Shown here in pieces: positions 2,104 to 48,655 of a stretch of 57,434 nucleotides of DNA. Made by a program: the position numbers and the translations under genes. The DNA is from an uncultured Bdellovibrionales bacterium (GTDB taxonomy: Bacteria > Bdellovibrionota_C > UBA2361 > JBGSMV01), in contig CAZVWV010000003.1 of NCBI GenBank assembly GCA_964631745.1, positions 1 through 57,434 of the forward strand, read 5' to 3'. The notes under the pieces are model-generated. The model saw only the letters and a program-made list of their open reading frames with translations. It did not search any database and was not told the DNA's origin. Position 1 is the first letter of the stretch, and every line of letters begins with the position of its first letter.

Positions 2104-2104
2104 T

Positions 2105-3598: not shown

Positions 3599-3865
3599 AC
3601 AAAAAACTACCCTGAGTTTATGAGCAATTACGAGAGGAAATTGCTCACTTAAGGGCTTTGCCTCCATTTTTGAGCAATCACGAATATTTACCTACCTCGA
3701 TAGGTAAAAACCACCTCTTTTACATATAAAAACAGGGGTTTATGGATCGGGGGCAACCCTAAACCCTTAATAATCAAGAATTTACCGGGTTTGGCCGATT
3801 TTTCTATATCGACTATATCGGCAATTATGTCTGGCCTCATTCTTGCCCTTTATGACCAACGCACT

Positions 3866-22090: not shown

Positions 22091-24580
22091 ATGACGATTA
22101 GCGATTCACGGGATGTGCCCATCCGATTTGCGGTCGTGTGTGGCGGGCCGTCTGGAGAGCGTGGCATTTCATTAAATAGCGCCCGGTCGGTTCTCGATCA
22201 TATTGGTCAACATTTCCCTGATCTCTCCCTCTTCTATTTCGATAGCCATCTAAACGCTTATTTAATCTCTGCTGAGCACGCCTATTCCAATACGCCTGAT
22301 GATTTCGATTTTAGACTGCAATCAGGTGAATTTGCTTCGCCGCTCTCGGCAGAAGAATTCGTGAATGAGATTCGACGGCATGATTTAGTCTTCCCTGTAA
22401 TTCATGGAGCATTCGGCGAAGATGGTGGTTTGCCTGCATTGCTCGAACGCGCTGGTATCGCTTATGTCGGTGCAGATCCCCAGGGTTGTATTAATGCGTT
22501 TGACAAAGCCAGAGCCAAGAGTTTGATCAGCAAGGCCGGGCTATTAACTTTGCCGTGGATAGTAGTCGAGAGCGATGAAATCGGGAAAAATGAAAACGGA
22601 GGAAAGTCGAGCACTGGCTTGACGCACACGGCCTTGGCGCGCATTCAAGCGTTTTTTGAGCAACAGCGCACGGAGAGATATATTGTAAAACCAAGTCGCG
22701 GTGGGTCAAGCTTTGGAGTGCAAGTCGTAAGTTCAGCTGATGAGGCGGCCAACGCAGCCGCAAAAATATTTTCACAGGGATATTACCAAACAGCCATTAT
22801 AGAGCCACTGTGTACAGGGACAGAATTCACCGTTGTGGTTATGCAAAATGTTGTAGGCCAGCCTGTAGCGTTGCTTCCAATCGAAGTTGAAAAGCCCACG
22901 GGTCATGAGATTTTTGATTATCGCTTAAAATATCTTCCCAGTACCGAGGTGGCTTATCATTGTCCGCCCCGTTTCGAAGTTGCGGTTACGGAACAGATTC
23001 GTTCAGGTGGCGAACAGATTTTTAGCCTTCTAGGTTTACGCGATTATGCGCGCATTGACGGATGGCTGCATAACGGTGAGATCTATTGGTCGGATTTTAA
23101 CCCTATCAGTGGTCTTGAACAGAATAGTTTTTTCTTTATACAAGCAGCTAGAGTTGGCTTGAGTCATCGACAGGCTTTAACGCTATTGGTATCGAGCGCG
23201 GCTAACCGAAGCGGCCTTGCGCTCTTACCTGGTTTGGGTTCTATCGAGTTAGAAGTCGCTAAGCGGAAACAGAAGGTGGCAGTTTTGTTTGGCGGAAACA
23301 CTGCTGAGCGCCAGGTATCGGTCATGAGTGGCACTAACGTCTGGCTAAAATTGAAGAGTTCGGATCGCTTTGAACCTATCCCTTATCTGCTTGATCGTGA
23401 TGGCACTATTTTTGAGGTGCCCTACCCGTTTTGTTTGTATCATACGGTCGAAGAGATATCCGCCGCCTGTCGTAGCGCTTTGCAGAGGGAAGACGCCTCG
23501 ATGGAGTTAGAGATCTTTAAACTTAGAGAGCAGCTTCGTTGTCCGAGCAGCGGCTTCTCATCGCTTATTCCGCGGCCTACCAGTTTGGAAGAGATCGCGG
23601 CAAACCATGACTTCGTATTTCTTGGCTTGCATGGCGGTGCGGGCGAGGATGGGACTATTCAGCTGGAACTTGAGAGGCTTGGAGTCGCATATAATGGAAG
23701 TGGTCCGAGTAGCTCAGAACTTTGTATGGATAAATATGCCCTAGGTTTGCTCGTCGATAGAGCTAATCTTCCTGGCGTTTCAACCGCTGAAAAGTATCTT
23801 CTGGACTTAAATCAGCTTGATAATTTAAGTACCTCCGAACTTTGGGGGATGCTTCAGAGAAAACTTAGTGGTCCTTCCGTATTGGTGAAACCCCGCGCCG
23901 ATGGGTGTTCCTGTGGCGTGGCTGTACTTCATTCGGTTGCTGATTTGGCGAATTATCTTACCGCGATCGAACGTCAGCTTGAACATATTCCTCCGCATAC
24001 ATTAACCGATCAGCCGAATCCGATTGAATTGCCGAGTTCTAAGTCGTCGCAACTGCTTTTTGAAAGATTCGTTGTCACGGATCGTGTTGCGGTGCGGGAC
24101 GGTGTCTTAGATTGGGAGCACCGCTCAGGTTGGATTGAGCTAACAGTCGGAATATTGGGGTCGGGGAGAGATCTTAAAGCTTTAGATCCAAGTTTGACGG
24201 TTGCAAGTGCTGGTATCCTATCACTAGAAGAGAAATTTCAAGGCGGGACAGGCATTAATATTACCCCGCCGCCAAGTGAACACATAAATCCTCAGATATT
24301 GGAGCTTATAAAAACAAGGGTCGCGCAAGTTGCAGTGCTGGCTGGCGTCGAGGGATACGCCCGCATGGATATCTTTGCGAATGCAACCTCAGGGGAAATT
24401 ATAGTAATTGAGATTAACACCTTGCCTGGTCTTACCCCGTCCACGGTACTGTTTCAGCAGGCGCTTGCAGACCGCGCCTTCAAAAGGCCAGTAGATTTTC
24501 TTGAGGCCCTTATCGATTTGGGTATGGCTGCTCGACGTGAGCGTGGCGACTTGCAGAGTCCGGAAGCGTACAACAGCTGA
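22091..24580 (+). CDS. ddl: D-alanine--D-alanine ligase with two tandem ATP-grasp units
   Basis: GGPSGERGISLNS / HGAFGEDG / VKPSRGGSS / FDYRLKY / ARIDG, then GGNTAERQVS / LHGGAGEDG / VKPRADGCS / ARMD / EINTLPGLT. Confidence 0.88.
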   Translation: MTISDSRDVPIRFAVVCGGPSGERGISLNSARSVLDHIGQHFPDLSLFYFDSHLNAYLISAEHAYSNTPDDFDFRLQSGEFASPLSAEEFVNEIRRHDLVFPVIHGAFGEDGGLPALLERAGIAYVGADPQGCINAFDKARAKSLISKAGLLTLPWIVVESDEIGKNENGGKSSTGLTHTALARIQAFFEQQRTERYIVKPSRGGSSFGVQVVSSADEAANAAAKIFSQGYYQTAIIEPLCTGTEFTVVVMQNVVGQPVALLPIEVEKPTGHEIFDYRLKYLPSTEVAYHCPPRFEVAVTEQIRSGGEQIFSLLGLRDYARIDGWLHNGEIYWSDFNPISGLEQNSFFFIQAARVGLSHRQALTLLVSSAANRSGLALLPGLGSIELEVAKRKQKVAVLFGGNTAERQVSVMSGTNVWLKLKSSDRFEPIPYLLDRDGTIFEVPYPFCLYHTVEEISAACRSALQREDASMELEIFKLREQLRCPSSGFSSLIPRPTSLEEIAANHDFVFLGLHGGAGEDGTIQLELERLGVAYNGSGPSSSELCMDKYALGLLVDRANLPGVSTAEKYLLDLNQLDNLSTSELWGMLQRKLSGPSVLVKPRADGCSCGVAVLHSVADLANYLTAIERQLEHIPPHTLTDQPNPIELPSSKSSQLLFERFVVTDRVAVRDGVLDWEHRSGWIELTVGILGSGRDLKALDPSLTVASAGILSLEEKFQGGTGINITPPPSEHINPQILELIKTRVAQVAVLAGVEGYARMDIFANATSGEIIVIEINTLPGLTPSTVLFQQALADRAFKRPVDFLEALIDLGMAARRERGDLQSPEAYNS

Positions 24581-24784: not shown

Positions 24785-26131
24785 TTAAAGTGGCTCACTA
24801 TCCAAGCTCCCAGCGGCAAAAATGGGCCAGCGTCTATTTAGTTTGCCATCTGTCGCGGGTTTTGGTGCGACAACCGTTTTGCCTGCGAGAATAATTGTAT
24901 GGGCTGGCTTATAGCGTTCCCGATAAATACTTAAGCTACGACTACGGGCGTTAGTACTTGATTTTACTTCTAGCGGAATCAGTTCGCTGGCACGCTCTAG
25001 AACGAATTCAATTTCCGACTCGCCCTCGTGCCAAGCTTTTGGGACTGAAGCGCCAGCCGAAAGTAACTCCAAAAGTACGTAATTTTCTGCGTAGAAGCCC
25101 TTGTACATATTGTCCCCCCAAGCGAAAATCTGTTGCGGTTCAAAACCAGAAAGATGGCGCAGCATTCCAAGATCAAACAGATAAAGTTTAAAGCGATTGT
25201 CTTTGCAATACGCACTCAACGGCGACAGGGCCTTTTCGGCTATATATACTTGGTGAATGAGTCCAGCTCGAGTAAGCCATTCAATTGGGCCACGTAGCTC
25301 ATCGAAGCTTTTCTTCCCTGAGATTACTTGTTTGAACTGAAATTTCTTGGCGCTGCCGTCAATTGCGCGAGCCAGCTGTGCGGGTATGTTTCTAAAAACA
25401 GTCTCTATATGCATGGCGCTTTCACTGCCACTATGTTTGGCTATGTCAGCAAGATAATCCTTGTAGATCCTTTCTTGAGTAGTCTTAATGTTTTGAATTT
25501 TTTCCAGCTTGCTCGGACCTGTAAGCCAAGCGACGACCGAATCTGGCAACCCACCGCAACAAAAGTAATCTAACATTAAGGACCACAATTGCTCGGTTAA
25601 ATAGGGGGAAGGGGGAGTCGCGGTGGCAATATTCCTGACTGATTCATAAAGGTCCAATTCATTGTGCGCAAGTAGAAATTCAAAGAATGATATCGGATAG
25701 AGAGTAACGCGATCGACTTGTCCAACTGGGAACGAGCCCTTGCTGAGAGAAATTCCCAGTAATGACCCGGCACAGGCCACAAAACTCCCTTTTAGATCTT
25801 CAGAGAAATACTTAAGTGAGGTTAAGGCCCGATCGCATTGTTGAATTTCGTCAAAAATTATAAGTGATTTATTAGGGTCAATCTTTTGCTGTATTTTAAT
25901 CCCAAGTTCAACAAGTATGTGCTTTGGGTCAAGTGTGCCCGAAAAGATAAGGGCGAGATCCGAGTCCCGTTCAAAATTAAAGTAGTGGCATGACTCAAAA
26001 TGTTCATTTCCGAATTTTTTAAGCAGCGCGGTTTTACCGACTTGTCTAGCTCCCTCCACTAACAAAGGTCTTCTATCTGGGTTTTTTGACCACGTTATGA
26101 GCTTATTTATAAGCGTTCGCTCTAAAAACAT
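24785..26131 (-). CDS. AAA+ ATPase with DUF4143, copy 2
   Basis: GARQVGKT, IFDEIQ, AGS, GGLP, KLYLFDLG, EIEF...LEVKS. Confidence 0.88.
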   Translation of the reverse strand: MFLERTLINKLITWSKNPDRRPLLVEGARQVGKTALLKKFGNEHFESCHYFNFERDSDLALIFSGTLDPKHILVELGIKIQQKIDPNKSLIIFDEIQQCDRALTSLKYFSEDLKGSFVACAGSLLGISLSKGSFPVGQVDRVTLYPISFFEFLLAHNELDLYESVRNIATATPPSPYLTEQLWSLMLDYFCCGGLPDSVVAWLTGPSKLEKIQNIKTTQERIYKDYLADIAKHSGSESAMHIETVFRNIPAQLARAIDGSAKKFQFKQVISGKKSFDELRGPIEWLTRAGLIHQVYIAEKALSPLSAYCKDNRFKLYLFDLGMLRHLSGFEPQQIFAWGDNMYKGFYAENYVLLELLSAGASVPKAWHEGESEIEFVLERASELIPLEVKSSTNARSRSLSIYRERYKPAHTIILAGKTVVAPKPATDGKLNRRWPIFAAGSLDSEPL

Positions 26132-26999: not shown

Positions 27000-27413
27000 C
27001 TAACGCTTAGGTTTCGGTGGTTCGTATTTCGATGGGCACTGTGTGAGCAGCTTTGCGGCTATTAACTGTCCGTTGCTCCACTCACCGTCAATGATCACGT
27101 CCCGTCCGGCGGCGAACATGTCGGGGCGTAGGCCTTCGTAAACGACCGGGATAGTTTTCGTCCCCGTGCCCTCGGGTTGGCCGGGATCGTGGATTGAAAA
27201 TTTAAGTTGGGCTTTGGGCTCTACCTGATAGTCGATGGGGAGGTTTGCGACCCGGCCGCCGACTCTGATACGGGTGCGGCCTTTGGCGTTTTCCGGTGAC
27301 AGTAAATCTGAGGGGAGCAGCACTAGGGATGTAGTTTGTTTCGTGGATTGGTACACCAAGGTCCCGCCAACTACCACAAAGATCACCAGCAATGCTGTAA
27401 ATACTCGCCCCAT
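27000..27413 (-). CDS. ccmE: Heme chaperone CcmE, CxxxY (System I*) type
   Basis: N-terminal TM, IRVGGRV, V.YEG..PDMF..G.DVI.DG, CPSKY at 27024-27038. Confidence 0.9.
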   Translation of the reverse strand: MGRVFTALLVIFVVVGGTLVYQSTKQTTSLVLLPSDLLSPENAKGRTRIRVGGRVANLPIDYQVEPKAQLKFSIHDPGQPEGTGTKTIPVVYEGLRPDMFAAGRDVIIDGEWSNGQLIAAKLLTQCPSKYEPPKPKR

Positions 27414-27422
27414 ATAGATTAC

Positions 27423-28874
27423 TTACTGTAAAGGTTTATACACCGCCAGACCAAGACTGCGCTTAATATCGTTAAGTTTAGCGGTTACGTGGCCATAGAA
27501 CCACTGTGAATCCCACCATTCGCGCGCATCCACGGGCACGCCGTGTACCCGCAGCTCGTAGTAAAGTTTGTTGCCCGTGCCAAGACCGGTATTTCCGACA
27601 GTGCCTATCTTTTGTCCGATCTGCACGGCCTCACCCTTATTGACTGAGGCAGTATCCAAAAAGCCGTATACCGACATCAGTCCTAGTCCGTGATCTATGC
27701 CAATTGTGCGACCGTATACTCCGATGTTTTCGGAAAAGGCCACGATACCTCCGTTCACGGCGAAGACGTCCGCCTTATCGTGAGGCATTAAGAATTGATA
27801 CCCTTTGCGTTTATTGGTGCCAACGCTGATTCCTTCCAATGTGTAAGTTACGTTATCCCCAAATGCTCCTACTATTGAACCGGGGTGCTGCATAAAAGGC
27901 CCGTTCCAATAACGCTCAAATCTTGGACCGTTTAGGAGCGCCATTAGCTCGTTTTCGTTGGCCTGCCTGAGCTCCTTATTCACCAAACGAAACTGCTCAA
28001 CCAAACGATCCATTCCGCCCACAGCAGTTTCGTACTGATACTGCGCCTCTGTGGCCGTGCGGAACTTAGTGAAGTTGTCATCCGCCAGCCGCGCGATGCG
28101 GTCACGTAGGTAATCTTCGGTTAATTTGAAAGTTGCCTCCCTGAAAGTGCGCTTTCCGATTCTATTGTTAAACGAGGTTGAGACGGCATTTCCTACGGCG
28201 TCTTCCGCAAACACTCTGACTGACGAGTCTTCCGAGGCCTGTTGCAAATCGATAGCATAAATAGCAGCAAACACCCGTGGGTCGGTGATGCTAGGGTCTA
28301 GTCCTCGCGCCGGATATCCAAGAAAACTCTGGTTTCCGACACGCACGCCGGAGACCGCTAAAGATTCATCGTACGCTTTATATATGATCAACTGTGAGCC
28401 GCCGATGGTGGCGTTGTGAAAGGCGGTGAGCACTTCGATCTTTGGGCGACGATAGTCGATCACCAACGGAATAGTGACTTCGGCCGAGTTGCTCCAAAGA
28501 CTTCGATCGAAGGCTTTAACTTCAATCGTGGCGCTGCCCTCCTCAAGTTCAAGGGTGTCCTGTTTCAACTCCAGCGAAAGTTCCTCCGACTTGGCCCCGC
28601 GCAGCTCTTTCCGAATAAAATCGCGAGAGCTCCCTTTTTGACTGAGGCGCACGACCAGCTCGTCCAGTCCGGAGCTCTCGTCGTTAATTCGTAGTTGCAG
28701 CGTCACCGGAATTAAGCCAAGCCCGCGGGGAACTTCGATGGGAGTTATGATCGGTGGATTGTTCTCAAGCACGGCCTCATACAGGTCGCGCCATCCGGCT
28801 AGACCGAGCGGAATCAAGGCGCCAAGCAGGGCCAAGAAAAATAGAAACTTTAGCGATACAATTCTACTGCTCAT
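27423..28874 (-). CDS. M23/LytM-fold protein with degenerate Zn ligands
   Basis: GRTIGIDHGLGLMSVY, V..G..V..GQKIG.VG.TG; HxxxD and HxH motifs absent. Confidence 0.8.
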   Translation of the reverse strand: MSSRIVSLKFLFFLALLGALIPLGLAGWRDLYEAVLENNPPIITPIEVPRGLGLIPVTLQLRINDESSGLDELVVRLSQKGSSRDFIRKELRGAKSEELSLELKQDTLELEEGSATIEVKAFDRSLWSNSAEVTIPLVIDYRRPKIEVLTAFHNATIGGSQLIIYKAYDESLAVSGVRVGNQSFLGYPARGLDPSITDPRVFAAIYAIDLQQASEDSSVRVFAEDAVGNAVSTSFNNRIGKRTFREATFKLTEDYLRDRIARLADDNFTKFRTATEAQYQYETAVGGMDRLVEQFRLVNKELRQANENELMALLNGPRFERYWNGPFMQHPGSIVGAFGDNVTYTLEGISVGTNKRKGYQFLMPHDKADVFAVNGGIVAFSENIGVYGRTIGIDHGLGLMSVYGFLDTASVNKGEAVQIGQKIGTVGNTGLGTGNKLYYELRVHGVPVDAREWWDSQWFYGHVTAKLNDIKRSLGLAVYKPLQ

Positions 28875-28876: not shown

Positions 28877-29989
28877 TTACTGTTCATTCAACTTTCTCAA
28901 GTCTTGTGCTACATCACCACCCAGTTTGCTTTTCAAGAATCTAACTAAATTGTCACGGGTCCTGTTTTCAAGCTGGCGCACCCTTTCCTTACTAATCTTT
29001 AATTTATCCGAAAGTTCCTGCAATGTGGACTTTTCCTCTGCCAGTATTCTAGCCTCAAAAATGTCGCGTTCCCGCGCATTCAAACTATCGGCAAATTCTT
29101 TAATCCCCTCAAGGAAGGCTTCTCTAAGCTCCTTGGTGGCAATTAGCTGCTCAGCGTTCAGTCCCTGGGCTGGCAGTAACGACATTAGCGTTGAATCTGA
29201 ATCGGCTTGCATAGGCGCATCGATACTAAGGTCTGAGCCTGCCAGCCGCTGCTCCATCTCGACAATATCGCTCTCTTTCACCTCGAGCCGTTCTGCTAAC
29301 AACTTAGGGCCAGGATAAAACCCTTCCTGCTCTAAGCGATCTTTCTCCTTTTTGAGGTTAAAGAAAAGTTTGCGTTGTGCCTGCGTGGTGCCGATACGCA
29401 CTAGCCGCCAATTGGCCATGATATAGCGGATAATGTAGGCTTTAATCCACCAGATTGCATAAGAGGGAAATCTAACGTTTCTGTAAGGGTCGAAGTTCTT
29501 TACGGCCTCCATAAGTCCGATATTTCCCTCTTGAATCAGATCCAACAAGCTCCTGGCGGCTTTTTCATATTCGCGCGCGATCTTTACCACCAGGATCAAG
29601 TTGCGAGTTACCAGTTGAAAGGCCGCTTCTTTATCCTGTTCATGGAAGAACTTAAGCGCCAGATCGCGCTCATCCTCTTTAGAGAGTGGCGTATACTGAC
29701 TAATCTCCCGAAGATAAGCCGCTAAGCCATCATATGGAATAATATCCTTGACCGCGTCTTTCTTTATTGGAGTGGGTTCTGCTGCCTCCGGTTCTAGAAG
29801 AGTAAGATCGTTGTCGGTCACCTGAACTAAATCTTCAGGTGGCAGCACTTCGATATCATCTATGACAGTGCCGATTACAGTGCCGATTCCAGTGCCGATT
29901 ACAGTGCCGAGCGGCTGGGGTGAGCCTAAGTGCTCGTTCTTCTCCGTCTTATCGGTGCCGCCGGGTGTTTTCTTCCGTTTTAAAGCCAT
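28877..29989 (-). CDS. rpoH: RNA polymerase sigma factor, RpoH (sigma32) family
   Basis: DLIQEGNIGLMEAV, YAIWWIKAYI, RpoH box QAQRKLFFNL, ISKERVRQLE. Confidence 0.88.
   Translation of the reverse strand: MALKRKKTPGGTDKTEKNEHLGSPQPLGTVIGTGIGTVIGTVIDDIEVLPPEDLVQVTDNDLTLLEPEAAEPTPIKKDAVKDIIPYDGLAAYLREISQYTPLSKEDERDLALKFFHEQDKEAAFQLVTRNLILVVKIAREYEKAARSLLDLIQEGNIGLMEAVKNFDPYRNVRFPSYAIWWIKAYIIRYIMANWRLVRIGTTQAQRKLFFNLKKEKDRLEQEGFYPGPKLLAERLEVKESDIVEMEQRLAGSDLSIDAPMQADSDSTLMSLLPAQGLNAEQLIATKELREAFLEGIKEFADSLNARERDIFEARILAEEKSTLQELSDKLKISKERVRQLENRTRDNLVRFLKSKLGGDVAQDLRKLNEQ
29865..29910. repeat. 12-bp tandem repeat x3.8, in frame in the rpoH N-terminus
   Basis: ACAGTGCCGATT units encoding GTVI/GTGI. 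Confidence 0.85.
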
Positions 29990-30189: not shown

Positions 30190-31884
30190 ATGTCTTCTAG
30201 AGTTGGCGAGTTACTGGTCAGAGCCGGTCTGGTTTCGCCCGATCAGCTCAGCAAAGCGCAAGAGGCCGCCAAGGCCAGCGGCGTCTTCGTCGGCACGCAG
30301 CTGGTGTCGTTAGGATTCATTTCGCAAGACGACCTGCTGCAAACAATTAGTCAGCAGTATGGTGTCCCCATCATTCAATTGCTCGATTATCAGTTTGATG
30401 AAAATGTACTGCAGTTAATCCCCCAAAATCTTGCCACCAAGCATCATCTCATACCGATTGTACGCAAAGACGCCACGCTTACGGTCGCTATGGTGGATCC
30501 CACCAATATTGTGGCGCTAAATGATGTCAAGTTTATTACCGGCTTGGATATTCAAGTAGCGCTAACTTCAGAGGCGGAGATCAAAAACGCCTTCGAGAAA
30601 TTGTTCGAGAAGAATGTTTCTTACGAAAGCATCATCGGTGACATGGAAGAAACCGATGTCGAGGTCGTACAGGCCGAAGCTGATGTGGATGTCAGCGAAC
30701 TTGAGAAAGCCACCGAAGACGCACCGGTAGTAAAATTAGTGAACGCTGTGCTGACCGATGCAATTAAAAAAGGTGCTAGCGATGTTCATATTGAACCATA
30801 TGAGAAGGTCTTTCGTATCAGATTTCGTATAGATGGTGTTCTGTATGAAATCATGAAGCCTCCTCTAAAGCTTAAGAACGCCATCACTTCGCGCACTAAA
30901 ATCATGGCGGATTTAGACATCGCTGAAAGGCGCTTGCCGCAAGACGGACGTATCAAATTAAAGCTCGGAAACGGACGCGAGATGGATTTCCGGGTAAACG
31001 TTCTGCCCACGTTGTTCGGCGAAAAAGTCGTCATGCGACTTCTAGATAAATCCAACCTACAGCTCGATATGACCAAGTTGGGGTTTGAGACTAGGCAGCT
31101 CGATGATTTTAAGACCGCCATCTCTAAACCTCACGGCATGGTGCTGGTAACCGGCCCAACGGGATCGGGCAAAACCACTACGCTTTACTCAGCTCTGGCG
31201 GAGCTTAATAAAATTACCACCAATATTAGTACAGCTGAGGACCCGGTTGAATTTAATTTAATGGGAATTAACCAGGCACAGATGCAGGAAGAGATAGGTT
31301 TCAATTTTGCATCGGCGCTTCGAGCATTCCTGCGGCAAGATCCCGACGTAATCATGGTCGGTGAGATTCGTGATTATGAAACTGCCGAAATTGCGGTCAA
31401 GGCCTCCCTGACCGGGCATTTAGTGCTTTCAACTTTACATACAAATGATGCCCCATCCACGATTAACCGTTTGCTCAACATGGGCGTGGAGCCGTTCTTG
31501 GTGGCATCATCAGTAAATCTCATCGTGGCGCAACGCTTGGCGCGTCGGGTATGTAGCACCTGCGCCCAAGACACGCAGCTTAATCCGGAAGTATTAGTGA
31601 ACATAGGAATCCCCGCCGAAGAAGCCAGGCTAGTAAAGGTTCGGCAAGGTAAAGGTTGCGACCGATGCGCCGGCACAGGGTACAAAGGCCGAATAGCGCT
31701 GTACGAAGTCATGCCCATGTACGATGAGGTGCGCGAGTTAGTGCTAAACGGGGCCTCATCTGCAGAGATTAAGAGAGAGGCCGCAAAGCTGGGGATGATG
31801 ACCTTAAGGGCTTCGGGGCTTATGCGGTTGAAAGAGGGGGTAACAACAGTCGAAGAAGTGTTGAGAGTTACCGCTGCTGATTAG
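30190..31884 (+). CDS. pilB: Type IV pilus assembly ATPase PilB
   Basis: MshEN-like N-terminus, ASDVHIEP, GPTGSGKT, LRQDPDVIMVGEIRD, LSTLHTND, CxxC...CxxC. Confidence 0.96.
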   Translation: MSSRVGELLVRAGLVSPDQLSKAQEAAKASGVFVGTQLVSLGFISQDDLLQTISQQYGVPIIQLLDYQFDENVLQLIPQNLATKHHLIPIVRKDATLTVAMVDPTNIVALNDVKFITGLDIQVALTSEAEIKNAFEKLFEKNVSYESIIGDMEETDVEVVQAEADVDVSELEKATEDAPVVKLVNAVLTDAIKKGASDVHIEPYEKVFRIRFRIDGVLYEIMKPPLKLKNAITSRTKIMADLDIAERRLPQDGRIKLKLGNGREMDFRVNVLPTLFGEKVVMRLLDKSNLQLDMTKLGFETRQLDDFKTAISKPHGMVLVTGPTGSGKTTTLYSALAELNKITTNISTAEDPVEFNLMGINQAQMQEEIGFNFASALRAFLRQDPDVIMVGEIRDYETAEIAVKASLTGHLVLSTLHTNDAPSTINRLLNMGVEPFLVASSVNLIVAQRLARRVCSTCAQDTQLNPEVLVNIGIPAEEARLVKVRQGKGCDRCAGTGYKGRIALYEVMPMYDEVRELVLNGASSAEIKREAAKLGMMTLRASGLMRLKEGVTTVEEVLRVTAAD

Positions 31885-31908
31885 TCGAATTAGGCAAGGG
31901 AAAGAGAG

Positions 31909-33126
31909 ATGGCAACATACGTTTGGGAAGGGAAGAACGCTCAGGGCAAAAAAGTTCAAGGTGAGCTAGAGGCTAAGTCCACGCAGGCAGTCTTTAACGC
32001 CTTGCGCGCGCAGCGCATCGTGCCCAACGCCAAAACCATCAGAGAGAAGGGCAAAGGGCTCGAGATGGAGATTAAGCTTTTTGGAAAAGCTAAAGTCGCC
32101 TCGAAGGATGTGGTAATCTTCACCCGTCAATTCGCCACCATGATCGATTCCGGTTTGCCGCTAGTGCAGGCCTTAGATATCTTGGCCAAACAGGCCGAGA
32201 ATAAAGCTTTCAAGAATGTGCTTATGGGCGTCAAGGAGTCCGTGGAGAGCGGAGGCACTTTGGCAGACGGCATGGCTAAGTTTCCCAGGGCCTTTGATGA
32301 TCTCTATGTCAACATGATTACTGCCGGTGAGAATGGCGGTATCTTGGACATCATCCTGGAGCGACTTGCAAAGCAGATGGAAAAGAACATGGCGCTTAAA
32401 CGTGAAGTCAAGACAGCCATGATATATCCGGGTGTTGTGATCTCGGCCGCTATAGTCGTCACAACAGTGCTCTTGGTCTTCGTGATTCCGACATTTGCGG
32501 ATCTATTCGCAGATTTTGGCTCGGCCCTGCCGCTTCCGACCCAAATCGTAATCAACATGTCCAACTTTGTGGTTAAATGGTGGTATCTGATAGCAGGAAC
32601 CCTGGGCGGTGGCGGATTTTTTATAGTTAAATTTGCCAAGACCGAACGAGGCAAAGAGGTCATTCATCCTTTGGCGCTTAAGCTCCCAATTTTTGGAGAT
32701 ATCATTAAGAAGGTAGCCGTGGCGCGCTTCACGCGAACGTTGGGCACCATGGTGAGCTCGGGAGTTCCTATCCTAGATGCTCTAAATATCTGCTCAAAAA
32801 CCGCCGGTAATAAAGTAGTTGAAAAAGAGGTTCAGCGCGCTCGTATCAGTATCTCAGAAGGTAAATCTATGATGGAGCCGCTAAGCGAATCGGCCGTGTT
32901 TCCATCGATGGTGGTCTCCATGATCGGTGTGGGCGAGTCCACCGGCGCGCTGGATGCTATGTTGCAAAAGATCGCAGATTTTTACGAGGATGAAGTTGAA
33001 AACGCCGTAACCGCCATGAAGCAATTAATTGAACCGCTTATGATTCTCTTTTTAGGAGCCATCATTGGTGGGCTGGTTATTGCGATGTATCTTCCAATCT
33101 TCAAACTCGGGGCTGCAATTGGATGA
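31909..33126 (+). CDS. pilC: Type IV pilus inner-membrane platform PilC
   Basis: [41 protein letters not shown]. Confidence 0.95.
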
Positions 33127-35153
33127 TTCAGAATGAAGCAGGCACAAGCGCCGTCATGCCGCGCATGCAGGTCGGCTGGCTGATAGCCGCGCGCATGGCC
33201 TTAGCCTCATTGGCGTTACTGTATGCTTCCATCCAAAGTGCGGAAGGTCCGGCTCCGCATGCCGCAAACTTTACCACATTCTTTGGGCCCATACTGACCG
33301 TTTACGGAATCTGCGCAGTTAGCGCCTTGTGGCTTAAGTTCTATAAGCCCACGCGTTTGTTCGCTTACGTTCAATTACTTTGCGACGGCTTTTTTGTAAC
33401 GGGACTTATCTACTTGAGCGGAGGGCCAGGCAGTCCCTTTCTGTTTCTCTATCTGCCACACATTATGGCCGCTGCCATCATACTCTCACGTCGAGGAGCC
33501 TTAGCCATAGGCATCCTCGATTTCTGCGTGTACATGGCCTTAGTTTACGGACTTTGGGCGGGTTGGATTGCAGCGCCTTCTAGCGGGACGCTCGTGCTTT
33601 GGCCGCGCGCCGGATTGTTCTATCAGGCCTTAGGACTTGGCTCGGCCATGACTTTAATCGCAATCGCCACTAGTTTTTTGGCGAGAAGGCTGCGCTTTAG
33701 TGACGCAGCGCTTGAAGCCTCCCAACGTGCCCTGGCGCATCTCTCTAACCGGCAAAAGCAGCTTATCAATAATATCCCAGAGGGAGTTATCACAACCAAC
33801 CTAGAGCAAGCCATCACAAGCATTAACCAGGCAGCGCTTGAACTTCTTTCGGTATCGGAACCAGATGCTCTGGGCAGAAAGCTTGAGGAGCTGATCGGTA
33901 ACGCCAGCGCGGATCAAGCCGAACCTTCCAAGATCACGGAGGCAAATGAGGGCGAAGTTAATTTACTCACTCGCTCGGGAGAGAAACTGACCGCAAAGTT
34001 TCAAGCTCAAGAAATAGAGTCCCTTACCGGTGAAAAGATCGGCAAAGTCATCTCTCTGAGAGATGTCTCAAAGTTAAGATTACTTGAAGATAAGTTAGAG
34101 CTGCACGAACGTATGGCCAGACTGCTTGCGGGGGAGGGCCAAGACTCACAGACGCCTGCTATCTTCTCTCACTTTGTGGGTGAGAGCGCTGTGATGCAGA
34201 AGATCTTTAGTTTAATAGCTAGGGTGGCGCAGAGCGATGCCACTGTGTTGATAGACGGAGAATCCGGTACCGGCAAGGAATTAGTCGCGCGCGCTATTCA
34301 TTCCAACGGACCGCGGGCCGAAGAGAACTTTGTGCCGGTAAACTGCGGAGCTATCCCTGAGAATCTGATTGAAAGCGAACTTTTCGGCCACAAGAAGGGA
34401 TCCTTTACCGGCGCGACAGCGGATCACGGAGGCTTGTTTAAGCAGGCAGATAGCGGCACTCTCTTTCTTGACGAGATAGGAGAGCTTCCGCTATCGATGC
34501 AAAGCAAGCTCCTGCGTGCCATCCAAGAGAAGCGCATTCGGCCGGTCGGGGCCGATCAAGATTTCCCCATCAATGTTCGAATCATCGCAGCCACTAATCG
34601 TAACCTAAAAAAAGAAGTGGAGCTCGGACACTTTAGGGAAGATCTCTATTACCGGCTAAACGTGATCCATATAATGTTGCCACCCCTTAGAGATAGAAAG
34701 AGCGATATACCGTTGCTGACAAACTCTATTTTGAGAAGAATTACCCGAGAGGATCGCGTTTCCATTGTGACTCCCGAAGCCATGCAGCTTTTGATGGCCT
34801 ATAACTATCCGGGAAATGTGCGAGAGCTTGAAAATATTTTGGAGCGCGCGCAGGTCATGGGCGGGCATGTGATCTTACCTGAACACTTTCCCGATGCTAT
34901 GCGCCAAGGCCCTAGTGGCGGCGGCTCGGCCCAGCCCGAGACGAGTATTATCATTCAGGACAACATCACCTTCCCCGTTCAGCTGGACGAGCTTTTAAAT
35001 TTGGTGGAACGCAAATACCTCGAAGGGGCCTTGCTCCAGACCGGCGGGGCTAAGAAGAGAGCCGCAACTTTGCTGGGGATGAACTTTCGCTCGTTTAGGT
35101 ACCGTTTACAGAAGTTTGGTATCGGCGACGGCGAGGAGGAAGCTAGCGAGTAG
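33123..35153 (+). CDS. Fusion of PilS-like membrane/PAS sensor and PilR-like sigma54 activator (no kinase, no receiver)
   Basis: N-terminal TMs ([16 protein letters not shown]), PAS ([13 protein letters not shown]), then [36 protein letters not shown] in one frame. Confidence 0.88.
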
Positions 35154-35177
35154 AGCCCCTGAAACATCGCCAGCTCC

Positions 35178-35240
35178 GACAAATTGCGTCACTAGTGACG
35201 TGATTTGTCACAAAATGGGGGTGACAAAACCTGTCTTGTC
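35178..35240. promoter_or_regulatory. Candidate upstream activator sites for pilA
   Basis: 32-bp near-palindrome GACAAATTGCGTCACTAGTGACGTGATTTGTC (35178-35209), then GACAAAACCTGTCTTGTC (35223-35240). Confidence 0.55.
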
Positions 35241-35296
35241 CGAGCTAAATCCCTATTTTTCCTTGGCTTATTAAAATATTCTAAACTTTTTTCGTC

Positions 35297-35312
35297 TGGC
35301 ACCCGACTTGCT
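35297..35312 (+). promoter_or_regulatory. Sigma54 -24/-12 promoter of pilA
   Basis: TGGCAC-CCGAC-TTGCT matches TGGCAC-N5-TTGCW. Confidence 0.85.
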
Positions 35313-35440
35313 TTACAGGGAAGCGAAGAGTAACGGTTTGCTCACTTTGCGGGCATTCGACCGGAAATTACACAGTGAATCGTACCTTCAGTTTATACCT
35401 GTTTATTTACTTTAATTATTGGTCAAGGAGAAGTTGGAAA

Positions 35441-35818
35441 ATGAGAAATGAGAAAGGTTTTACTCTGATTGAATTGCTAGTTGTTATAGCGATTATCGGT
35501 ATTTTGGCTGCTATAGCAATTCCACAGTTTGCTGAGTACAGGCAAAGAGGATTTGACGCACGTGCTAAGAGTGATCTTAGAAACGTTGCTGCCGCTGAAG
35601 AGGCATACTTCGCTGATAACGAAGTATACGTCGATTGCAGCGAGTCAGATTGCGCAAGTCTACTTCCTGGGATCTCTGGTCTGTCTGAGGGCGTAACACT
35701 TCAGATTACCGCTGCAACCAGCGCATTTACCGGTTCATCCACCCATCCAAACGGCACTGGTGCGGTTTGCGCCTGGGATAGCAATGCTGGTGGCTTAACA
35801 GGCTGTCCGATTCCTTAA
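35441..35818 (+). CDS. pilA: Type IVa major pilin
   Basis: MRNEKG|FTLIELLVVIAIIGILAAIAIPQF; SD AAGGAG at 35425-35430; four Cys in the globular part. Confidence 0.93.
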   Translation: MRNEKGFTLIELLVVIAIIGILAAIAIPQFAEYRQRGFDARAKSDLRNVAAAEEAYFADNEVYVDCSESDCASLLPGISGLSEGVTLQITAATSAFTGSSTHPNGTGAVCAWDSNAGGLTGCPIP

Positions 35819-35946: not shown

Positions 35947-36654
35947 ATGCGAGTACTGCTGCTCATCTCTTTATTGATCGCCATAACTGGTTGGGCAGGA
36001 ATAAGACTTGAATCCAAAATGTTTGGGATCTCAAAGGCCGAAGCAAACTCCAATGAGGGACTCTATCTTCCAAAGCTTGCAGCTTTAAACTTTCTAAGTT
36101 TTGGTTATAAGAATGTTTTAGCAGACCTTATCTGGTTTAAGACTATTAGTTATTTCGGAAAGCATTATCAAAGTGACAGGGACTTTACCTATTTATCTCA
36201 CATGTGCGACCTCACCCTAGCTTTAGACCCCAAGATGCGACACGCCTATGAGTTCTGTGGAACTATGTTGGCCTGGGAGGTATCGACTTTCGCTGAAAGT
36301 ATAAAGATCTGGAGTAGGGCCATCGAGGTTTTTCCTTTGGACTGGCGCTATCCCTACTTTCGTGGTTTCACCTATATGTACTTCTTGAAAGATCAGGAGC
36401 GCGCTCGAAACGATTTTATGCTGGCCGCAAAGATTCCGGGGGCTGACCCAATTGTGGCGCGCTTGGCCGCTAAGAAGTTCTTGGATATGAACGATCCAGT
36501 TGCCGCGATCGGTTTTTTATCTGACATTTTAAAACGCACCAACGATCCCGCTCAGCGCGCCGCCTTGATAAGACGCATACAGGAGGCGCAAGTCGAGTTG
36601 CGGAAAAGGGATCTGGCGGCGCAGGAGAACAGCAGGAGGACAGATGAGTTCTGA
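35947..36654 (+). CDS. Pilin-locus TPR-like protein (Myxococcus PilG / Geobacter Xap-like by position)
   Basis: ADLIWFKTISYFG, LDP..R..Y, FPLDWRYPYFRGF TPR-like helices; follows pilA. Confidence 0.7.
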   Translation: MRVLLLISLLIAITGWAGIRLESKMFGISKAEANSNEGLYLPKLAALNFLSFGYKNVLADLIWFKTISYFGKHYQSDRDFTYLSHMCDLTLALDPKMRHAYEFCGTMLAWEVSTFAESIKIWSRAIEVFPLDWRYPYFRGFTYMYFLKDQERARNDFMLAAKIPGADPIVARLAAKKFLDMNDPVAAIGFLSDILKRTNDPAQRAALIRRIQEAQVELRKRDLAAQENSRRTDEF

Positions 36655-37576
36655 GAATCTGGCGTTAGATATTGCGGGCCTATCGTATAGCTACAAAAGC
36701 AACTGGCTTGGCAGATCACAACCAGCCCTTAAGGCCTTCTCGCTTCAGGTGCATACGAATGAGATCTTTGGATTCTTAGGTCATAACGGCGCCGGGAAAA
36801 CCACAACCATCAAGTGTATATTGAACTTAATTAAACCAGGTCAGGGTAGTGTAAAGATTTTTGGTAGAGAATCTTGGCGCGCGGAGTCGCGCGCGCTGGT
36901 CGGGTATCTGCCGGAACAGCCGTATTTTTACGATCATTTAAGCGTAGAGGAACTTTTGCAATTTTACGCGGCCTTGGCCGGCGTGCCGCGCGATGGTCGT
37001 GGTATGCGTGTGCGCGAAGCGCTTGCTCGTGTGGGGATGTCCGAGCGCACCAAAGTGCGTTTGGGTACGTTATCCAAAGGGTTAATTCAACGTGTGGCCT
37101 TGGCCCAGGCCATTGTCGGCCAACCTAAGCTTTTGATCTTAGATGAGCCTTTCTCTGGGCTTGATCCGGTCGGACGAAAACAGTTTCGGGATCTGATAGA
37201 GGAGCTGCGTAACTCGGGCGTTACGGTATTCATGTCCTCGCACGTGCTTAGCGATGTGGAGTATCTCTGTGATCGAGTGTCCATCATGGTCAAGGGAGAG
37301 CTGCGCGGGGTTTATGAGGTCAAAGACCTAGCAAAAGTATCAAACGATGAATGTGAACTAGTTTTAGAGTACTCAGCGGCGCTCGATAATCTCTTGCGTC
37401 CGCTTGCAGGCAAGTACGTTAAACACGGGGCCACCGTCAGTATTGTTTTTGCAAACCGCGATGTGGCCGAGGCTGAACTTAAGCTCCTTATCAACGCGGG
37501 CGCAAGGGTGGTCTCTTTCGGATCAATGAACAATGCCCTGGAAAATCTATTTATGCGTGTTCTACAGGAAGGGTAA
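36644..37576 (+). CDS. ABC transporter ATPase (PilH-like by position)
   Basis: GHNGAGKT, GYLPEQ, LSKG, LILDEP, SSH. Confidence 0.9.
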   Translation: MSSENLALDIAGLSYSYKSNWLGRSQPALKAFSLQVHTNEIFGFLGHNGAGKTTTIKCILNLIKPGQGSVKIFGRESWRAESRALVGYLPEQPYFYDHLSVEELLQFYAALAGVPRDGRGMRVREALARVGMSERTKVRLGTLSKGLIQRVALAQAIVGQPKLLILDEPFSGLDPVGRKQFRDLIEELRNSGVTVFMSSHVLSDVEYLCDRVSIMVKGELRGVYEVKDLAKVSNDECELVLEYSAALDNLLRPLAGKYVKHGATVSIVFANRDVAEAELKLLINAGARVVSFGSMNNALENLFMRVLQEG

Positions 37577-38350
37577 ATGGAAAGAGTCTGGATGATAGCC
37601 CTAAACACTTTTAGGGAGTCGATTAGAAGCAAAATTTTATATCTGACACTATGTTTCTCTACGGTGCTGATTTTCGTGGCGGCGCTTTTTGGATCGGTAA
37701 CGATTGGTGACCAGATTAAGGTGATTATAGATTTCGGACTTTTTTCGACTTCGATATTAGCGGTGTTATACGCGGTCATTACCGGCACAACCTTGCTTAG
37801 TAAGGAACTCACCCGAAAGACTATCTTTAACGTGCTTTCCAAAGCCGTGAAGCGTTGGGAGTTCGTGTGTGGCAAATATTTAGGGATGCTGCTTACGGAA
37901 GCGGTCCTAATCGCGATTATGGCCGTCTTATTGGTGCTCTTTGTCTTTCTTTTTCAGGGCGGCTTTAGGCCCGCGATTTTACTTGGCTCTTTGCATATCT
38001 TGTTTGAACTTGTAATAGTTTGCGGGCTAGCCATATTTTTCTCGACGATTGTGGTAACCCCGCTTCTAAGCGGAATCTTAGCTTTCTCTCTTTTCTTGGT
38101 GGGACGTTCAGCCGGGTATCTACTGTATTTTGTAGAATCAGGGGCGTCAGACGGGGTGCAATCGCTGCTCTTAAAGGCACTCTATCTTGTAGTGCCTCAT
38201 CTAGATAAAATTAATATCAGCTCTGAGATCGTGTACGACGCCCCGCTGCCCATATCGGCCACGCTGATAGCGGGCTTATACGCAGTGGGCTACGCCGGAG
38301 TTCTGATCGTGCTTGGCACGATGTTTTTTGAGAGGCGTGAGTTTAATTGA
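37577..38350 (+). CDS. ABC-2 type permease (PilI-like by position)
   Basis: IALNTFRESIRSK, KEL.RKTIF.VLSK.V.R.EF..GKYLG; multi-TM. Confidence 0.88.
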   Translation: MERVWMIALNTFRESIRSKILYLTLCFSTVLIFVAALFGSVTIGDQIKVIIDFGLFSTSILAVLYAVITGTTLLSKELTRKTIFNVLSKAVKRWEFVCGKYLGMLLTEAVLIAIMAVLLVLFVFLFQGGFRPAILLGSLHILFELVIVCGLAIFFSTIVVTPLLSGILAFSLFLVGRSAGYLLYFVESGASDGVQSLLLKALYLVVPHLDKINISSEIVYDAPLPISATLIAGLYAVGYAGVLIVLGTMFFERREFN

Positions 38351-43511: not shown

Positions 43512-44642
43512 ATGGAGCTAACTGCCAGATATGTAAAGGAAAAAATCCTGACTGATCTTACCCGAAAGATGGTTTTTGTGGGTGGGCCACGGCAGGTTGG
43601 GAAAACTACATTAGCTGAAAATATAGCCGAGCATCTCGGTCTACCCCATCTAATTTTGAATTGGGACGATGATCAGGATCGAGAAAAAATCCTAAAACAA
43701 GAATTCTCCATCAATCGCGGCTTACTCATTTTTGACGAATTACATAAGAATAGACGGTGGAGAAATTACTTAAAGGGTTTATACGATAAAAGGAAGAGAG
43801 ATTTTCAAATTCTGGTGACTGGAAGCGCTAGGCTAGATTTATATCGCTTTGGTGGAGATTCCCTGCAAGGGCGCTACTTTTATCACAGGCTACATCCCTT
43901 AAGTGTTAAGGAACTTCGAATCACTGCCGCAGACGATCTGTTAAAGTTATTACAGTATAGCGGATTTCCCGAACCATATTTTCAGCAAGACTTAATCGAA
44001 AAGAAAAGATGGGCAAATACCTATCGCACACGCCTGATCAAGGAGGATTTAAGAGACCTTGAGTCAGTAACCGAACTTTCAGCAATTGAAACACTTGCGC
44101 TTAGACTACCAGCTCTTGTAGGGTCGCCCTTGTCTTTAAATTCTATCCGTGAAGATCTACAGGTTGCGCATGCAAGCGTTCAAAAGTGGTTGTTCGTTTT
44201 CGAAAAGCTCTACTATATTTTTAAGGTCTTACCCTTTGGTGCGCCTAATATCAAAGCGGTTAAAAAACAGTACAAACACTACCACTATGATTGGACGCTC
44301 GGCGAAAGTGAAGGGGCGCGATTTGAAAACTTTATTGCATCACACCTGTTAAAATGGTGCCATTACCAAGAGGATAGTTTTGGAAGATTGCTTGAGCTAA
44401 AGTATTACAGAGATAGCGAAAAAAGAGAGGTTGATTTCGTATTAACGGAAGATTCTAAACCAATCTTGTTTTTAGAAGTGAAGTTGTCTGACAGAAATAC
44501 CACTGACGGCCTTGTTTATCTCAAGCGTAAATACCCTTCTGTTAGAGCGGCGCAGGTCGTTTTAAAAACATCTGAGCGGACTTTTGACAAGCATGGTATT
44601 GAAGTTCTTGATGCTTTGAGTTTTTTGAGTGAGCTAGTTTAA
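43512..44642 (+). CDS. AAA+ ATPase with DUF4143, copy 3
   Basis: GPRQVGKT, FDELH, TGSA, GGDSLQGRYF, EVDF...LEVK; closest to copy 1. Confidence 0.88.
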   Translation: MELTARYVKEKILTDLTRKMVFVGGPRQVGKTTLAENIAEHLGLPHLILNWDDDQDREKILKQEFSINRGLLIFDELHKNRRWRNYLKGLYDKRKRDFQILVTGSARLDLYRFGGDSLQGRYFYHRLHPLSVKELRITAADDLLKLLQYSGFPEPYFQQDLIEKKRWANTYRTRLIKEDLRDLESVTELSAIETLALRLPALVGSPLSLNSIREDLQVAHASVQKWLFVFEKLYYIFKVLPFGAPNIKAVKKQYKHYHYDWTLGESEGARFENFIASHLLKWCHYQEDSFGRLLELKYYRDSEKREVDFVLTEDSKPILFLEVKLSDRNTTDGLVYLKRKYPSVRAAQVVLKTSERTFDKHGIEVLDALSFLSELV

Positions 44643-47422: not shown

Positions 47423-48655
47423 ATGGATAACCTTCTCCAAACACTTCACCTACAGAGCTTAGAAAAGGAACGCCTGCTCGGTTTGACGGTTTTTGAAAGG
47501 CATGTAAAGCCTAACTTTATAAAGCTGCTGCCACTAAACCTAATTAAAGTAATTCTAGGGCCACGCCGTTCGGGTAAATCGACTCTAGCCATAGATGCGT
47601 TGCGCACGACTGACTTTTTCTATCTGAACTTTGAAGATGAAAATCTAATTAATATAAATGGCGATGATCTGATCAAGGCGATCGATCGAGAATATAACAA
47701 TCCGAAACTCCTGCTCTTAGATGAAATTCAAAACTTTGCCCATTGGGAGATGTTTTTAAATAAGCTCCAGCGTCGTGGCAAGAACCTAGTAATTACAGGC
47801 TCTAATTCCAAGCTTTTGTCTGGGGAAATGGCTACTTCATTAGGTGGTCGAACGCTAAATTTTGAGGTCCTACCTTTTGGCTTTAAAGAGATTGGTGGCG
47901 TCTGGGAAAATAAGATGCCCAAATCTGAAATCCTTAAGACATTTTTGATTAATGGAGGATTTCCTGAATTCGCCACCAACTTTCCAAATATTCCGAGTGT
48001 CTATCTAAAGAACCTGCTCGACACGACATTGCTTAAGGATGTGATCAACCGACACAAAATCAGAAAGACCACCGATATAGCCGATTTTCTAGCACTACTT
48101 ATAACTTCGATGTCATGCCCGTTTACCTTAAACAGCGCCAGAAAGGGCCTAGTGGGTGCAACCAGTCCCACCACCTTGAAAAAATATTTCGGCTTTCTGG
48201 AGGAAGCCTATATTGTGTTTCAACTCCAACGGTTTTCGTTTAAGACTAAAGAGCGAATCAACGCCCCGCGCAAGATTTATGTGATTGACAATGGTTTAGT
48301 GGTCGCAAAACTTGGCAATTGGTTTGGTTTGGAAACTAGATTATTTGAAAATCTGGCTTTTCTTGAAATTTATCGCCAAGGCTTGACACCAAATTTAGAC
48401 TTATTCTATTACCAGACTAAAAACAATCGCGAGATAGATTTCATTATAAAAGAGGGCAACAAAATTAAGAAGCTAATTCAAATTAGCTTTGATATCAGCG
48501 CACCAACTACCAAGGAGCGCGAATTCGACGCGCTAATTGAAGCATCGCAGGAGTTAGCTTGCGACGATTTAGTAGTCGTAACTTTCGCTGACAAGCGAGT
48601 CGAGTCGTACCACGGCAAGACGATTAAGGTCATCGGTATAGACGACCTGGCCTGA
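47423..48655 (+). CDS. AAA+ ATPase with DUF4143, copy 4
   Basis: GPRRSGKS, LDEIQ, TGSN, GGFPE, KIYVIDNG, EIDF...IQIS variant. Confidence 0.88.
   Translation: MDNLLQTLHLQSLEKERLLGLTVFERHVKPNFIKLLPLNLIKVILGPRRSGKSTLAIDALRTTDFFYLNFEDENLININGDDLIKAIDREYNNPKLLLLDEIQNFAHWEMFLNKLQRRGKNLVITGSNSKLLSGEMATSLGGRTLNFEVLPFGFKEIGGVWENKMPKSEILKTFLINGGFPEFATNFPNIPSVYLKNLLDTTLLKDVINRHKIRKTTDIADFLALLITSMSCPFTLNSARKGLVGATSPTTLKKYFGFLEEAYIVFQLQRFSFKTKERINAPRKIYVIDNGLVVAKLGNWFGLETRLFENLAFLEIYRQGLTPNLDLFYYQTKNNREIDFIIKEGNKIKKLIQISFDISAPTTKEREFDALIEASQELACDDLVVVTFADKRVESYHGKTIKVIGIDDLA

Follow-up and report, generated by a model that had tools for sequence, protein, structure and literature searches.

The pilus locus and its single regulatory gene

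The 57,434-nt stretch analysed here (the window) is contig CAZVWV010000003.1 of an uncultured Bdellovibrionales bacterium, and its type IV pilus locus carries an unusual regulatory gene. Between pilC and pilA, where pilS and pilR normally sit, the original prediction had placed a single gene in which the front of PilS passes directly into the back of PilR. The open reading frame (ORF) coordinates and the Pfam matches of the neighbouring genes confirmed that one gene of 676 codons fills this slot on the plus strand, with its ATG overlapping the pilC stop codon by 4 nt (ATGA). The features of the locus are listed below.

30190–31884, plus strand: pilB, type IV pilus extension ATPase (T2SSE, E 3e-145, plus MshEN)
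31909–33126, plus strand: pilC, platform protein (T2SSF, E 9e-71)
33123–35153, plus strand: PilS-PilR fusion regulator, predicted membrane-integral sigma-54 activator (676 aa; mean predicted local distance difference test score (pLDDT) of the AlphaFold (AF2) model, 82)
35187–35226, no strand assigned: probable upstream activator site with four GTCAC/GTGAC half-sites, including GTGAC-N7-GTCAC at 35195–35211
35297–35312, plus strand: sigma-54 promoter TGGCAC-N5-TTGCT, TGGCACCCGACTTGCT (-24 GG at 35298–35299, -12 GC at 35310–35311)
35441–35818, plus strand: pilA, type IVa major pilin (Pfam N_methyl)

The true start of pilA is the ATG at 35441, giving MRNEKG/FTLIE, in which MRNEKG is the leader peptide and the mature pilin begins with FTLIELLVVIAIIGILAAIAIP, including Glu5 and Pro22. 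The order of ccmE, an M23 peptidase gene and a divergent sigma-70-family factor gene, followed by pilB, pilC, the regulator and the pilin, recurs, to the extent that the contigs cover it, in eight related loci (including L002, L003, L004, L005, L012, L013 and the P0045 contig), and pilB occupies the same position in every related locus long enough to show it. Three PilS kinases could be placed on contigs (L006, L009 and L010), where they form part of pilC-pilS-pilR or pilB-pilT-pilC-pilS-pilR operons, and a pilC-pilS-pilR arrangement is reported for B. bacteriovorus (PMC4237445). The fusion loci (30190–35818 in the window) have pilB and pilC with no intervening pilT, and the order in the two-component loci examined, e.g., L010:1743–9077, is pilB-pilT-pilC or pilT-pilC. 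The fusion is thus accompanied by loss of pilT from its cluster.

Domain architecture and predicted structure

The following segments were assigned within the regulator.

33186–33707, plus strand: PilS-type six-helix transmembrane (TM) domain, residues 22–195 (PF25323; six AF2 helices)
33747–34070, plus strand: PAS domain, residues 209–316 (Pfam PAS_9, PAS and PAS_8; AF2 PAS fold at 221–314)
34068–34127, plus strand: signalling helix, residues 316–335, N-terminal portion of DHp helix 1 kept from PilS (AF2 helix; kinase alignment)
34128–34169, plus strand: variable linker of ~14 residues, 336–349 (pLDDT <50 at 337–347)
34176–34922, plus strand: sigma-54 AAA+ ATPase and lid (Pfam, motifs, Foldseek)
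34257–34280, plus strand: Walker A
34398–34415, plus strand: GSFTGA
34461–34475, plus strand: Walker B
34635–34658, plus strand: arginine-finger region
34812–34835, plus strand: sensor II
35001–35117, plus strand: Fis-type helix-turn-helix (HTH_8), residues 627–665 (Pfam; FRSFRY recognition segment common to PilR)

The membrane domain (residues 22–195) scored 45 bits for the Pfam family 6TM_PilS (PF25323), whose cut-off is 27. An N-in/C-in topology, with both termini in the cytoplasm, is predicted from hydropathy and the positive-inside rule. Arg24, Asp88 and one 13-residue motif are conserved within this domain. Among 46 aligned fusion members, R24, D88, S104 and L109 are invariant and G100, G101 and Y110 nearly so, and R24, D88, G100, S104 and Y110 remain conserved at ≥90% when fusions and PilS kinases are aligned together. 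In the AF2 model, built from the 46-sequence alignment, TM6 continues as a single long helix (residues 162–216) into the PAS fold, and the chain then runs through the helix at 316–335 and a disordered stretch at 337–347 to the AAA+ domain and a C-terminal three-helix DNA-binding domain. The signalling helix is strongly conserved in the same alignment (E322 invariant; L325, E329 and A332 nearly so), while the linker between it and the AAA+ domain is unconserved in sequence, constrained in length and free of any conserved cleavage motif. The spacing from ERMARLL to Walker A is 42–48 residues in 125 of 126 family members, most often 44 (70/126).

The ATPase module matched Sigma54_activat at residues 352–517 (E 2e-72) and AAA_lid_14 at 523–600, and its fold matched the AAA+ domains of FleQ and FlrC in Foldseek (TM score 0.93, root-mean-square deviation 1.5 Å). 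Walker A, Walker B, GSFTGA, the arginine-finger region and sensor II (GNVRELEN) are intact and invariant across the 46 aligned members. HisKA, HATPase_c and Response_reg had no Pfam match in the 676-aa protein at E ≤ 0.01, which bears out the predicted loss of the DHp, HATPase and receiver domains. Retention of the PilS membrane region, the PAS domain and the pre-H-box linker was likewise upheld by Pfam, AF2 and the kinase alignment, so that the domain search and the structure prediction agree on the anatomy first proposed. Two peptides quoted in that proposal, of 23 and 10 residues, correspond to residues 313–335 (nt 34059–34127) and 422–431. No named equivalog was obtained for the regulator, the NCBIfam matches to many sigma-54 activators all being sub-threshold.

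Measured against the known protein classes, the regulator has the six-helix membrane domain of a PilS kinase and lacks both the DHp domain with its phospho-histidine and phosphatase motif and the HATPase_c domain. It has the PilR-type AAA+ and HTH output of the response regulator and lacks a receiver with a phospho-aspartate. It carries the AAA+ motif set and is accompanied by a -24/-12 promoter with an upstream site, as expected of an enhancer-binding protein, and it combines six predicted helices and HTH_8 in one chain without two-component phosphotransfer domains, as expected of a transmembrane one-component regulator. By its domain content it is an enhancer-binding protein and a transmembrane one-component regulator, and neither a PilS kinase nor a response regulator.

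Authenticity of the gene and distribution of its family

The source organism is from wastewater, and contigs from three independent wastewater runs (two studies; Logan) cross the PAS/AAA+ junction unbroken and span 34023–34490, and a single 3.6-kb contig covers 32900–34452; an assembly chimera at the junction is excluded by these contigs. All nine nucleotide differences among the strain variants in them (9/9) are synonymous third-position changes. An apparent deletion variant in run X2, a joint skipping 337 nt, was rejected, as it rests on 21–23-nt matches to the conserved AAA+ motifs of another gene.

A homology search returned 120 full-length relatives, mostly of 650–700 aa and 46–58% identical to the query, nearly all with the same precomputed Pfam set. 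Together with the representative search described below, at least 147 sequences share the architecture and the activator motifs, so the protein is not a lone inactive deletion. The architecture recurs in more than 140 independent assemblies from JGI, ENA, NCBI and Logan. Source labels of the relatives are Oligoflexia, Bdellovibrionales, Bdellovibrionota, SAR324 or Dadabacteria metagenome-assembled genomes, and JGI often labels members as 'response regulator PilR'. A scan of a genome collection with patterns from this single protein yielded one weak Nitrospiraceae fragment and nothing else, and tblastn of the N-terminal half against plasmids yielded one irrelevant PAS kinase and nothing else. 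That the gene is real and conserved is practically certain, and its sequence record indicates that the family is under selection.

Family members of ~573 aa, P0089 (L013:6001–7722) and P0133, lack the PAS domain entirely; a short coiled stretch links TM6 to the conserved 'EEQLAVQEKMARLLA' helix and the AAA+ domain, in the same pilB-pilC locus. Some lineages can therefore do without the PAS domain. The catalytic motifs are degenerate in two divergent proteins of the fusion clade: P0144 (691 aa) has GEGGTGK and no GAFTGA loop, and Walker A of P0163 (675 aa) reads 'GDSGTAQE'. Both may be ATPase-dead derivatives serving as repressors or partners.

Where the sensor and output halves come from

A HMMER scan of 1.84 billion representative sequences with residues 1–345 returned 3643 matches, the best 150 of which fall into two length classes. 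Pfam analysis of 82 sampled representatives found a sigma-54 domain in 25 and HisKA in 57, and because 55 of the latter also carry HATPase_c, the 57 are taken as true PilS-type kinases. The kinases align with fusion residues ~16–334 and end the aligned span with LEEELRLKDRMAAVGELAAGLAHEIGNPL, opposite a 21-residue segment of the fusion. The homology stops ~9 residues before the phospho-histidine of the kinases' AHEIRNPL, and from this end point the fusion retains the DHp helix up to ~9 residues short of that residue.

On the other side of the junction, fusion residues 348–672 align end to end with the PilRs of L009 and L010 from PilR residue 143 onward, at 48–49% identity. The phmmer scores were 309 bits for the PilR of L009 and 295 for that of L010, followed by 281 for NifA, the best activator of solved structure (PDB), and 229 for the other sigma-54 response regulator in the window (3791–5218). 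An HTH segment, G-M-x-F-R-S-F-R-Y, is common to the fusion and the PilRs of L009 and L010 and is missing from the paralogue at 3791–5218. Percent identity was rejected as the sole criterion for the PilR subfamily, as PDB activators reach 56% in the AAA+ core. The assignment of the C-terminal module to PilR rests on whole-length scores, the HTH motif and synteny, and the prediction of a PilR-type AAA+/HTH half was borne out by the scores and by the identity to PilRs whose genes adjoin those of PilS kinases.

When the N-terminal modules of 36 fusion sequences and 91 kinases were placed in a neighbour-joining tree, the fusions all grouped into a single clade; bootstrap values, computed with clipped distances, were 83–87/100 when the 50 nearest kinases were included. 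An in-frame deletion in an ancestor seems to have cost the protein the remainder of PilS, from halfway along DHp helix 1, and PilR up to the end of the receiver. By the simplest history, this was one event in an ancestor of the clade, with the loss of ~1 kb spanning the pilS-pilR boundary. The evolutionary reading, a PilS front joined to a PilR back, is supported by the homology of both halves.

The pilA promoter and its upstream site

The promoter before pilA is the sole strict -24/-12 match in the window, and a sigma-54 promoter is conserved in L002, L003, L004, L005 and L012. The half-sites of the probable activator site lie 34–73 bp past the regulator stop codon, from first to last. The GTGAC-N7-GTCAC palindrome is centred at 35203, ~95 bp before the -24 GG, and is unique in the window, with 0.03 occurrences expected by chance. 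It is kept upstream of pilA in L003, L004 and L005 and present as variants in L002 and L012, within a conserved alignment block, and its distance upstream of the -24 element ranges from 95 to 116 bp across loci. The conserved promoter and site speak against a lack of activation at pilA, which the original prediction had named as a refutation. A metatranscriptome contig of a ~92%-identical relative begins at 35330, ~7 nt from the predicted start (~35322–35324), and runs into pilA. Its start is suggestive of the pilA transcript start, within the limits set by contigs that are directionless and lose their ends.

The pilA leader is ~118 nt long (35313–35440). Its first bases, 'TTTAC(T)AGGGAAGCGA(A/G)GA', are conserved across the window, L002, L003, L005 and L012, and the rest is not. 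Rfam gave no match anywhere in the window, the leader included. The leader may harbour either a 5' regulatory element or a promoter-proximal signal of extended length.

A second sigma-54 regulator is encoded at 3791–5218 on the plus strand, with a canonical receiver-AAA+-HTH arrangement and no adjacent histidine kinase called; its presence implies that sigma-54 serves other regulons in this organism.

Comparison with known systems

In the enhancer-binding protein PspF, control is exerted by a separate membrane-associated partner, PspA, and membrane association is inhibitory. Control from the membrane is likewise found in RedR2-BtdS, where, as in the fusion, a link to the membrane governs how active a sigma-54 activator is; however, there a separate protein controls the activator and membrane association inhibits it, whereas the membrane part of the fusion is covalently attached (PMC10084136).

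PilS, a sensor with six membrane helices, binds pilin inside the membrane, and when pilin is abundant the phosphatase activity of PilS turns PilR off (PMC6058289; PMC6528607). PilS Arg24 and pilin Glu5 and Pro22 are reported to be necessary for the PilS-PilA interaction (Kilmury and Burrows, 2016, as cited in PMC6528607). The fusion shares with the PilS-PilR systems of P. aeruginosa, Geobacter, Myxococcus and Kingella, and with Nps-Npa of commensal Neisseria, the membrane domain, PAS domain, pre-H-box helix and AAA+/HTH output, the slot after pilC, the sigma-54 pilA promoter with its upstream site, and Arg24 together with pilin Glu5 and Pro22. It differs in having no phospho-histidine helix, no ATP-binding kinase domain and no receiver domain, and because these phosphotransfer domains are missing, it would have no kinase/phosphatase switch, no diffusible regulator and no amplification.

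The one described counterpart is Rsp of N. gonorrhoeae, a fusion of PilS (Nps) and PilR (Npa) that is regarded as a remnant (Carrick, Fyfe and Davies, 2000, as cited in PMC6528607 and PMC10269533). By that description, the regulator fits the Rsp architecture, with the PilS membrane part N-terminal and the PilR output part C-terminal in one chain derived from an adjacent pilS-pilR pair (PMC6528607; PMC10269533). In contrast to the gonococcus, which transcribes pilE with RpoD (PMC6528607; PMC10269533), the fusion described here belongs to a conserved family of some depth, in which the ATPase motifs are intact and both the sigma-54 promoter of pilA and the upstream site are conserved. The two fusions, found in different phyla, are likely of independent origin.

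Regulators of the ToxR, CadC and TcpP type likewise combine sensor, membrane anchor and DNA-binding domain in one protein acting from the membrane (PMC10269533). These are mostly single-pass proteins with winged-helix or similar domains that act at sigma-70 promoters, whereas the fusion is six-pass and would need an ATP-hydrolysing AAA+ assembly on the sigma-54 polymerase. The examined part of the supplements of that survey of transmembrane regulators has no 'Sigma54' entry (PMC10269533). In the literature searched on membrane-bound and transmembrane enhancer-binding proteins, no membrane-integral sigma-54 activator except Rsp was found described, and no functional one. The idea of a PilS-PilR chimera has already been published; what is new is a conserved, apparently functional, clade-wide family with an architecture known until now only as a gonococcal relic.

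Proposed mechanism and alternative explanations

The best overall explanation, with a probability of roughly 0.6, is that the regulator is a phosphorylation-free, membrane-integral sigma-54 activator of pilA that responds to pilin by analogy with PilS. We infer that it activates pilA and does so through an oligomeric switch. That it activates pilA is quite likely; that pilin is the input signal, drawn from the PilS analogy, is a reasonable proposal at slightly below even odds. The protein would reside in the inner membrane with both ends cytoplasmic, probably as a dimer along the TM6-PAS-helix axis, and its HTH would bind the GTGAC-N7-GTCAC palindromes just downstream of its own gene. When permitted, the AAA+ domains would come together, hydrolyse ATP and open pilA's sigma-54 promoter. 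Unassembled membrane pilin, by analogy with PilS, would bind the membrane domain, with pilin Glu5 and Pro22 engaging regulator Arg24, and would shift the TM6-PAS-helix conformation so as to block AAA+ assembly. Pilin occupancy, relayed via TM6, PAS and the conserved helix, would determine if AAA+ assembly at the upstream site and opening of the pilA promoter can take place, and the outcome would be pilin 'inventory control' without phosphotransfer. The residues implicated in pilin sensing are kept, Arg24 in the regulator family and Glu5 and Pro22 in the neighbouring pilin.

The original prediction had further proposed that pilin level is coupled mechanically to the ATPase. This is doubtful, as the ~14-residue linker is variable in sequence and of low confidence in the model. 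A variable spacer of fixed length points to a geometric tether rather than a rigid rod, and a tether makes control of assembly as in NtrC1/DctD likelier than direct mechanical drive. In activators of the NtrC1/DctD type, a helical element N-terminal to the AAA+ domain may keep dimers in a form that cannot assemble until they receive a signal. PDB entries 1NY5 and 1NY6, of this activator type, are both among the structural/PDB matches of the AAA+ part of the fusion. In NtrC1/DctD the helix follows a phosphorylatable receiver, whereas in the fusion it follows the PAS domain and the membrane sensor, with a flexible spacer between.

As the original prediction also supposed, the target DNA may be held at the membrane; it could be brought there through co-translational insertion of PilC and the regulator, as the activator site starts 34 bp past the stop codon and both pilC and the regulator encode polytopic proteins. 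A more specific proposal, which we put forward as tentative, is that this is the first functional natural membrane-integral sigma-54 activator, in which the PilS pilin sensor would directly control AAA+ ring assembly, perhaps as a trimer of membrane dimers, and which would act essentially in cis, such insertion carrying its binding site to the membrane.

Several points weigh against a pilin-responsive activator in the membrane. The disordered, sequence-variable linker argues against rigid mechanical transmission, and a protein with six membrane helices per subunit would be required to assemble into a hexamer. Arg24 was equated with Arg24 of P. aeruginosa PilS by numbering and conservation, not by direct alignment. 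No rpoN was seen within the window. Some members (P0089, P0133) have no PAS domain, and two divergent ones (P0144, P0163) have degenerate motifs. The sole described analogue, gonococcal Rsp, is reported to have no detected role in pilin transcription (PMC6528607).

Membrane-bound transcription factors are commonly freed by proteolysis. The membrane module could accordingly restrain a constitutively active AAA+-HTH part until signal-triggered cleavage in the 336–349 linker frees a soluble, PspF-like activator. The linker, disordered and variable, would suit such a role, and an enhancer-binding protein inactive while held at the membrane is documented in RedR2-BtdS (PMC10084136). However, the length from helix to Walker A is tight (42–48 residues) and a conserved cleavage motif is missing, the adjacent signalling helix is more strongly conserved than simple tethering would require, and the locus has no conserved gene for an intramembrane or cytoplasmic protease, the upstream M23 peptidase being of the cell-wall hydrolase type. 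We consider release by cleavage unlikely.

The pilA activator could also be controlled through its PAS domain, which would sense a cue in the cytoplasm (redox, a metabolite or light), with the membrane domain serving only localisation, e.g., polar targeting. Most members do have a PAS domain, and a polar-targeting role of the PilS membrane domain has been reported (Ethier and Boyd, 2000, as cited in PMC6058289). Yet neither the locus nor the helix-AAA+ junction differs in the members without PAS, the membrane residues, Arg24 included, are more strictly conserved than most PAS residues, and no cofactor-binding signature was identified. This explanation appears improbable, to about the same degree as release by cleavage.

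A functionless, decaying pilS-pilR remnant, as proposed for Rsp of N. gonorrhoeae (PMC6528607; PMC10269533), would accord with the degenerate Walker A or GAFTGA of a few family members, but it is very improbable and already contradicted by more than 140 members with 46–58% full-length identity to the query and invariant catalytic motifs, by the conserved synteny, promoter and upstream site, and by purely synonymous strain variation. An assembly chimera of pilS and pilR fragments, for which nothing speaks but the unusual architecture, is already refuted by the independent contigs of three runs across the junction and by the same architecture in JGI, ENA, NCBI and Logan assemblies.

Neighbouring and other genes in the window

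Divergent from pilB, the sigma-70-family factor gene (28877–29989, minus strand) is followed by the M23 peptidase gene (27423–28874, minus strand) and the CcmE gene (27000–27413, minus strand), and all related contigs of sufficient length show these three genes in synteny with the pilus locus. The sigma-70-family factor at 28877–29989 has an odd N-terminal 'GTVIGTGIGTVIGTVI' repeat.

Directly after pilA lies a gene for a 235-aa protein without a Pfam match (35947–36654, plus strand), and then an ABC ATPase and an ABC-2 permease (36644–38350). The ABC pair downstream of pilA is also present in L002 and L005, with a second pilin and a PMT_2 glycosyltransferase inserted between in L002. The gene content of this module suggests pilin modification or export. 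In L005, GC-rich inverted-repeat copies ('CCAGGGAGGAC...') at 9035–9100, 9925–9960 and 10200–10225 flank an uncalled pilA and resemble repetitive extragenic palindromic or miniature inverted-repeat transposable element-type repeats.

Toxin-antitoxin or defence-like genes are unusually dense in the window. There are four paralogous AAA_14/DUF4143 ATPase genes (2057–3304, plus strand; 24785–26131, minus strand; 43512–44642, plus strand; 47423–48655, plus strand), a HipA-like kinase gene (562–1917) and a gene for a SocA/Panacea antitoxin-domain protein (53531–54454). An 829-aa protein encoded at 22091–24580 (plus strand) contains two tandem D-Ala-D-Ala ligase units, with the N and C domains each matched twice.

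Biological significance

Surveys have reported PilS/PilR to be absent from some Bdellovibrio-like genera (PMC6060248; PMC13147790). The family also calls for a change of annotation, as its members are now called 'response regulator PilR' or 'sigma-54 interacting regulator'. Nature has here provided an experiment on the readout of a sensor-kinase membrane and PAS module, which in this family would drive an AAA+ ATPase in place of a kinase. The family would also make sigma-54 activation from the membrane testable, with the questions of geometry that this raises: six helices per subunit, ring assembly and DNA looping. If the tentative proposal of a sensor in direct control of AAA+ ring assembly is true, the conformational output of a histidine-kinase sensor could be rewired to a non-kinase effector by one deletion. 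Predation by Bdellovibrio-like bacteria needs type IV pili, and for this reason pilin supply in a whole clade is probably controlled chiefly at this fusion.

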